A stretch of 15,572 nt of DNA from an uncultured archaeon (GTDB taxonomy: Archaea; Thermoproteota; Nitrososphaeria_A; Caldarchaeales; Wolframiiraptoraceae): positions 1-15,572 of the forward strand of contig CALJVH010000035.1 in assembly GCA_937974645.1 (NCBI GenBank), in the 5' to 3' direction. A program made the position numbers and the translations under genes. Shown here one piece after another: positions 14,113 to 14,271 of the stretch. The notes below the pieces were generated by a model that was not told the origin of the DNA, did not search any database, and saw nothing but the letters and a program-made list of their open reading frames with translations. Position 1 is the first letter of the stretch; the number at the start of each line of letters is the position of its first letter.

Positions 14113-14271
14113 TCCCGCGGGCAGGATTTGAACCTGCGACATTCCGGGCCTTTTCAGCCCTCCGGTTTCTGTCCGCCTGGTAGGCTGAATACCGCGCCTC
14201 CTTGGGGCGCGGCTACAGCCGGAAGCTGTTGGCAGGGTCATAGCCCCTCTACCAGGCTGAGCTACCGCGGG
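14113..14271 (-). tRNA. tRNA-Tyr (anticodon GUA at 14216-14214) interrupted by three introns (14246-14226, 14212-14167, 14160-14143); no encoded CCA
   Basis: The spliced reconstruction is CCCGCGG TA GCTC AGCCTGGTA GAGC T TCCGG CTGTAGA CCGGA ATGTC GCAGG TTCAAAT CCTGC CCGCGGG A, 74 nt. All stems pair perfectly. It has the C1-G72 pair and A73 that are archaeal Tyr identity elements. Exons plus introns of 21, 46 and 18 nt add up to exactly 159 nt. Confidence 0.9.

Follow-up and report, generated by a model that had tools for sequence, protein, structure and literature searches.

The tRNA-Tyr locus

The window, that is, the whole stretch of 15,572 nucleotides analyzed in this study, very likely contains a functional, single-copy gene for tRNA-Tyr(GUA) from an uncultured heat-vent member of the Caldarchaeales (Aigarchaeota), located on the minus strand (14271-14113) and interrupted by three putative endonuclease-type introns at tRNA positions 22/23, 37/38 and 44/45 (Table 1). 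A preliminary description of this DNA had proposed a tRNA-Tyr gene split by three introns, two of which at non-canonical positions, and the sequence strings quoted in support of it were all found in place on the minus strand. Removal of the three segments leaves a 74-nt sequence, which is called by ARAGORN as tRNA-Tyr(gta) with a full cloverleaf. The predicted spliced product is a class I tRNA with C1-G72, A73 and the anticodon GTA, and the cloverleaf is also its minimum-energy fold (-34.2 kcal/mol at 37 C). Exon 1 is 100% identical to exon 1 of the related genes described below.

Table 1. Positions of the exons, the putative introns and the flanking signals of the tRNA-Tyr gene in the window.
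Feature	Position	Strand	Description
tRNA-Tyr(GUA), whole gene	14113..14271	-	159 nt, CCA not encoded
Exon 1	14249..14271	-	23 nt, tRNA positions 1-22: acceptor 5' strand, D-stem 5' strand, D-loop, G22
Intron 1	14228..14248	-	21 nt at 22/23; among the tRNA-Tyr genes of this genus and family that could be read, shared only with congener G007
Exon 2	14213..14227	-	15 nt, positions 23-37: remainder of D-stem, position 26, anticodon stem 5' strand, anticodon loop to G37
Intron 2	14167..14212	-	46 nt at the canonical site 37/38; internal hairpin CCGCGCC/GGCGCGG
Exon 3	14160..14166	-	7 nt, positions 38-44, ACCGGAG
Intron 3	14142..14159	-	18 nt at 44/45
Exon 4	14113..14141	-	29 nt, positions 45-73: remainder of variable loop, T arm, acceptor 3' strand, discriminator A73
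TATA-like box TTTATATG	14296..14303	-	centre about 29 nt upstream of tRNA position 1; putative promoter, from the usual archaeal spacing
Two T4 runs	14087..14102	-	just 3' of A73; likely oligo-T terminator (putative role)

Searches of the raw window with ARAGORN in default mode and with Rfam at gathering score gave no matches. With introns allowed, ARAGORN misidentified the locus in the raw window as a tRNA-Phe(gaa) that would have an 84-nt intron and a poor D arm, and this spurious call was discarded. The source run has also been assembled independently (Logan contig, depth about 14), with zero differences from the window over a 501-nt stretch. Neither ARAGORN nor Rfam nor a pattern search with the 5' exon revealed a further tRNA-Tyr gene in the assembly, which is 82% complete; this includes an intact, intron-less copy, which, with the present copy unexpressed, had been named in the preliminary description as counter-evidence.

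Splicing motifs at the intron boundaries

The bulge-helix-bulge geometry, reportedly described by Marck and Grosjean in 2003, has on each strand, in the 5' to 3' direction, a 4-bp central helix that is preceded by one outer helix and followed by a 3-nt bulge and then by another outer helix. The archaeal endonuclease cuts after the second nucleotide of the bulge, and the motif forms either as hBHBh' or in one of the relaxed versions, HBh' or hBH. All possible cut pairs of the gene were scanned for this motif, with the canonical intron of the same gene serving as an internal check. Of the 8910 cut pairs, 0.34% passed under lenient settings and 0.15% under strict settings. Motifs were identified at all three insertion boundaries defined by the comparison with relatives, which is well beyond chance.

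In intron 2, the cut pair (59,105) combines a central helix CTGT/ACAG with the bulges AG^C and AA^A (the caret marks the predicted cut) and an exon-side helix of 7 bp, which makes it a full helix-bulge-helix-bulge-helix motif, in agreement with the good bulge-helix-bulge previously noted for this intron; the 5' bulge shrinks to 2 nt if the CCGC/GCGG helix is fully formed. For intron 1, which had been placed as a 21-nt segment anywhere between 22/23 and 24/25, the motif selects position 22/23. Here, the cut pair (23,44) has a central helix between TGGT in the D-loop and GCCA, the bulges AG^A and AC^A, and an h' hairpin of 4 bp (GGGG/CCCT). The cut pair (112,130) of intron 3 has a central helix in which CCGG at positions 39-42 pairs with a second CCGG, the bulges AG^G and AA^T, and an h' hairpin of 3 bp, GC(T)/(G)GC. 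The motifs of introns 1 and 3 are thus of the relaxed HBh' type, with an exon-side outer helix of 0-1 bp, and these two introns would therefore rely on an enzyme with relaxed specificity.

We also enumerated the motif-compatible excisions of the gene. All products that were classified by ARAGORN as tRNA-Tyr use the cut pairs (59,105) and (112,130), and the conserved D arm is restored solely by the register (23,44). The other motif-compatible excisions resulted in low-quality products, "Phe(aaa)" or "Leu(aag)", that match no relative. A model with only two introns, for which the preliminary description had correctly stated that no bulge-helix-bulge is obtained, was also rejected: in the version with a 64-nt intron, AAAA faces CTGT and the central helix is absent.

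Distribution of the introns among related archaea

We obtained about 36 tRNA-Tyr genes, representing four families of a single order, by searching 61 related genomes and adding further loci that were fetched separately. Every readable gene among these relatives has a homolog of the canonical intron, with a length of roughly 41-58 nt, but intron 1 is shared with only two other genomes, the congener G007 and a member of another family, G045. The intron in G007 is 18 nt long and has the same site, central helix and bulges as in the window, with a hairpin CTCC/GGGG as compared to GGGG/CCCT here, a compensatory change. In G045, the intron is 14 nt long, with the same 22/23 site and the same central helix.

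Intron 3 is absent from the tRNA-Tyr genes of all of the approximately 36 relatives from the 61 genomes and the fetched loci. Metagenome contigs were scanned for an insertion at the corresponding place, which resulted in a single contig, L056. The tRNA-Tyr gene on this contig contains introns at 30/31 (20 nt), 37/38 (44 nt) and 44/45 (16 nt). The last of these shares the CCGG/CCGG helix and the AA^T 3' bulge with the 18-nt intron 3 in the window, and has a different loop and a hairpin GG/CC instead of GC/GC, such that the second hairpin pair has changed from C-G to G-C, which is again compensatory. The support for intron 3 from outside its own genome is this one metagenome contig, and the conservation of the motifs with compensatory change is seen in one or two comparison sequences per intron.

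Additional insertions were observed in other relatives. The G045 gene (L013) has three introns, two at 22/23 and 37/38 and the third, which is 21 nt long and has a full motif, in the T-loop. In two further genomes, G027 (L024) and G031 (L022), a large extra insertion is located just 3' of the D-loop, at approximately 26/27 as judged by eye; the motif enumeration gave no site for it. From this pattern of presence and absence it follows that close relatives differ in the number of introns in tRNA-Tyr, which ranges from one to three.

The mature tRNA-Tyr predicted for the window is identical to that of the sister genus g3 (L008-L015), and differs from the congeners L003, L004, L006 and L047 at positions 26 and 44-46, with T26/G44 here as compared to G26/T44 in the congeners. 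The canonical intron is nonetheless of the congener type. These observations hint at a mosaic or recombinant gene.

The register of intron 3

The length of 18 nt that had been suggested for intron 3 was supported by our analysis, but not the range of positions, 38/39 to 43/44, within which the 3' intron had been placed. A cut in one of these six registers would give a mature tRNA with A44 and the variable loop ATGTC. Such an excision also removes 18 nt and also yields a 74-nt cloverleaf that is accepted by ARAGORN, and the resulting T26-A44 is an acceptable 26:44 combination. Nevertheless, a check by hand showed that the central helix is lacking in all six registers, as the last four exon nucleotides in front of the bulge do not pair with their intron counterparts in front of the 3' bulge, whereas the 4-bp helix is perfect at 44/45. 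This was confirmed by the scan, which returned no cut pair other than (112,130) in the intron 3 region. Furthermore, the loop ATGTC does not occur in any of the roughly 36 relatives, where GTGTC is found, and contig L056 shows the same structure in the 44/45 register. We therefore regard a cut between 38/39 and 43/44 as very unlikely.

The CCGGA repeat at the two borders had been taken as a neutral source of ambiguity. This view did not hold, since the central helix is formed by the second CCGG, on the intron strand, together with positions 39-42; CCGG is a palindrome, and its complement for this reason resembles a direct repeat. The comparison with the 44/45 intron of L056 shows that the register is fixed by the predicted splicing motif rather than left ambiguous by the repeat. 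With intron 3 at 44/45, the mature variable loop would be GTGTC and the mature tRNA-Tyr would thus have G44 and not A44. In this register, the 74-nt products of the window gene, of L056 and of the genes of the sister genus g3 are identical.

The bacterial tRNA-Tyr is a class II tRNA, and in class II tRNAs the stem of the variable arm is flanked by one or two unpaired nucleotides on each side. If only two introns were removed and the 18 nt were retained, the anticodon arm and the T arm could be separated by an extra hairpin formed by this segment, as in the bacterial molecule, and a 5-bp hairpin (GGGCT/GGCCC) directly after the anticodon stem is indeed part of the predicted minimum-energy fold. 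The geometry is atypical, however, with no unpaired nucleotide on the 5' side and eight on the 3' side, and a variable arm is not conserved: all relatives are of class I, with a variable loop of 5 nt. In addition, the identity set C1-G72/A73 is of the archaeal class I type, and a perfect splicing motif, in register and conserved with compensation in L056, would have to be a coincidence. For these reasons, a retained class II-like arm is likewise very unlikely, and intron 3 is in the following considered as a putative third intron at 44/45.

Genomic context

In four congeners (L002, L003, L006, L007), about 0.6 kb separate the tRNA-Tyr gene and a dnaG-like Toprim gene. In the window (11960-14400), the distance between these two genes is about 2.15 kb, approximately 1.5 kb more than in the congeners, and the tRNA-Tyr gene has an inverted orientation with respect to its neighbor; the DNA between them is mostly a non-coding mosaic. 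The dnaG-like neighbor is thus kept as in the congeners, by which the tRNA-Tyr gene is placed at its native locus.

It is very unlikely that the gene has been silenced or is decaying, in a rearranged region rich in mobile elements, and that the working tRNA-Tyr gene is located in the unassembled 18% of the genome: the mosaic looks accessory, the gene is inverted and displaced, a TasR-like element adjoins it and the genome is 82% complete, but the exons are 100% identical to those of functional-looking orthologs, a TATA box and a T-run terminator are present, all three insertions have kept their splicing motifs, and the relatives have one tRNA-Tyr gene each, at the same locus.

An RNA rod is located downstream of the TasR-like gene (14417-14505), and the 9-mer CGGCTGTAG at 14438-14446 in this rod is identical to positions 29-37 of tRNA-Tyr. 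The GG that follows the 9-mer matches the first two intron bases of the g3-type genes and not those of the window gene. A second exact 9-mer common to the rod and tRNA-Tyr was not found, and since a single match of this kind has an estimated chance expectation of about 0.14 for these two stretches, no conclusion is drawn from it.

Splicing enzymes

The genome encodes two paralogs of the splicing endonuclease. The best match to the alpha subunit (184 amino acids, contig C13) is the catalytic alpha subunit of the heterotetramer from Aeropyrum pernix (3p1z_B, E 3.8e-50). The alpha subunit retains the catalytic Tyr, His and Lys residues and aligns without gaps through the Crenarchaea-specific loop, with a lysine opposite to K44 of the A. 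pernix enzyme (APE), which gives that enzyme its broad substrate specificity (PMC5829648). In the beta subunit (175 amino acids, contig C6), the catalytic His is replaced by Pro and the catalytic Tyr by Phe, as expected of a structural subunit. Named homologs of the alpha subunit are assigned to "Aigarchaeota", "Caldarchaeales" and Candidatus Caldarchaeum, with an identity of 58% to the C. subterraneum protein, and on this basis the window was assigned to the Caldarchaeales. A scan of named genome contigs with the radical-SAM protein of the window gave matches in distant lineages only (Hadarchaeum, Thermoplasmata). A gene for the RtcB ligase was also identified. An (alpha-beta)2 enzyme with the Crenarchaea-specific loop has been described as general for the TACK lineages, including the Aigarchaeota (PMC5829648). 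The type of endonuclease, proposed earlier as a check on the gene model, thereby corresponds to the (alpha-beta)2 heterotetramer of relaxed specificity.

The reading of the gene as one with three endonuclease-type introns, two of which are non-canonical, is thus in agreement with the motif analysis, the comparative data and the repertoire of putative splicing enzymes. As for archaeal bulge-helix-bulge introns in general, the cloverleaf is restored by their removal, their boundaries have the geometry of the motif, the motif is conserved with compensatory change, and a cognate endonuclease is encoded in the genome. We infer cleavage, ligation and the order of splicing from the sequence.

The transcript would be a precursor of about 160 nt with three endonuclease-type introns. 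In each bulge, the (alpha-beta)2 endonuclease is expected to cut 3' of the second nucleotide, upon which RtcB would join the exons to a 74-nt class I tRNA. The HBh' introns of A. pernix provide a parallel, in that the relaxed motif is cut by the APE EndA enzyme by means of the loop lysine (Hirata et al. 2011, PMC3241643; PMC5829648). This lysine is kept in the genome studied here; cleavage was demonstrated biochemically for A. pernix, while for the window gene it is a prediction.

Folding of the precursor

The preliminary description had also pointed to a complementarity between intron 2 and the D-loop. This complementarity is real: the segment CTACCAGGC of intron 2 (14175-14183, minus strand) is complementary over 9 nt to the D-loop segment GCCTGGTAG (14249-14257, minus strand), and the two are paired in the minimum-energy fold predicted for the precursor (-81.7 kcal/mol at 37 C). 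Neither the motif of intron 1 nor that of intron 2 is seen in this predicted fold. The motif of intron 1 would require the TGGT of the D-loop, which is predicted to be sequestered in the precursor by the 9-bp duplex with intron 2.

We calculated the energetic cost of enforcing each of the motifs. At 37 C, the motif of intron 3 costs 0.9 kcal/mol in the full precursor and 3.7 kcal/mol once intron 2 has been removed. The corresponding values for intron 1 are 7.3 and 2.7 kcal/mol, and the motif of intron 2 costs 5.8 kcal/mol in the full precursor. At 75 C, the cost in the full precursor is 1.1-2.2 kcal/mol for each of the three motifs. The motifs of introns 2 and 3 are mutually exclusive because both make use of positions 39-42 in the anticodon stem, and with such competing motifs the excision would have to be stepwise, with refolding in between. 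According to the energy model, the most economical order of removal would be intron 3, intron 2 and intron 1, which is to be read as an outcome of the model and not as a result.

The most interesting side result is that the complementarity is kept across the order. In nearly all relatives, from four families, the canonical intron is complementary to the D-loop and D-stem over 7-12 bp, with a core of CCAGGC versus GCCTGG (loci examined: the window, L002-L030, L047, L049-L051 and L056). Substitutions in the complementary segment (CTACTAGGC, CTGCCAGGC, CTACCGGGC, CCAGGTTGA) are transitions, C to T or A to G, by which G-U pairing is kept. We found no description of such a complementarity between the D-loop and intron 2 in a limited search of the literature.

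It is conceivable, although unlikely, that the antisense segment serves across the order as a built-in folding lock, which would hold the precursor in a fold unlike that of a tRNA and impose an obligatory order of removal (first the V-region intron, then the canonical intron and last the D-arm intron). If so, extra introns would be gained only where their motifs suit the folding pathway. A weaker variant would be that extra introns accumulate at this locus because they break up the target sites of the adjoining element, a putative tRNA-directed, RNA-guided nuclease. Archaeal introns may also encode guide RNAs, as exemplified by the box C/D guide RNA in the intron of pre-tRNA-Trp, where the guide is flanked by C/C' and D/D' boxes. 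In intron 2, no RUGAUGA box was recognized by reading the sequence, and Rfam at gathering score gave no match in the window.

Comparison with known multi-intron tRNA genes

The three-intron tRNA-Tyr gene is well supported but ordinary, being of a kind that is already documented in the Caldarchaeales. The preliminary description had considered such a gene worth noting in a genome that encodes PolD. However, multi-intron tRNAs with introns in the D, V and T arms, together with a heterotetrameric endonuclease, have been known in this order (Aigarchaeota) since 2011 (PMC3082918, PMC3293823). Thirteen intron-containing tRNAs were reported in C. subterraneum, which belongs to the same order as the window (PMC3082918; Sugahara et al. 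2012, PMC3293823). The multi-intron genes of C. subterraneum do not include tRNA-Tyr, unlike the window, where this gene has three introns, and its close relatives, where it has from one to three.

In the Thermoproteales (Pyrobaculum, Thermofilum and Caldivirga), up to three introns per tRNA gene have been reported (Sugahara et al. 2008; Fujishima et al. 2010, both as cited in PMC4033280). According to these accounts, the similarities to the window include short introns of the BHB or HBh' type, many of them non-canonical, and an (alpha-beta)2 endonuclease with the Crenarchaea-specific loop. The Thermoproteales represent another lineage at the phylum level, and the same accounts describe large-scale transposition of introns, whereas no copies of introns 1 and 3 were found in other tRNA genes of the genome studied here. 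In a search for copies of these two introns elsewhere in the genome we found short matches only, and a pattern search over 76 genomes with the hairpin of intron 3 gave three matches with one mismatch, none of which was located within a tRNA gene.

Since genes of this kind were already known, the general picture of tRNA splicing in Archaea is unchanged, and the value of the gene is practical and evolutionary. In practical terms, it represents a pitfall for annotation: standard gene finders miss an essential gene or mistake it for tRNA-Phe, and after automatic annotation the genome would seem to be devoid of tRNA-Tyr. In evolutionary terms, it points to recent turnover of introns, with one to three introns per gene among close relatives and insertions at 22/23, approximately 26/27 (as judged by eye), 30/31, 44/45 and in the T-loop. 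Such snapshots of intron turnover have been asked for in reviews of tRNA gene disruption (PMC4033280).

One of the short matches to intron 1 is located in the D arm of another tRNA gene of the same genome (G000). The first 12 nt of the intron, AGGGGCTATGAC (14237-14248), are identical to the D-loop and D-stem at positions 71578-71589 of contig C10 in G000. We read this gene as tRNA-Val(CAC), and it is classified by ARAGORN as Leu(cag). The match could be a coincidence, for which we roughly estimate an expectation of 0.004 when all tRNA genes are considered, or it could be a trace of recombination between tRNA genes.

In total, ARAGORN gives introns for 21 of the 29 predicted tRNA genes in the genome. 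Implausible positions of the anticodon or the intron were obtained for the ARAGORN loci C5:265-386, C8:3336-3451, C13:15540-15675 and C21:13915-14031 in G000, and non-canonical or multiple introns are probably present in these genes as well.
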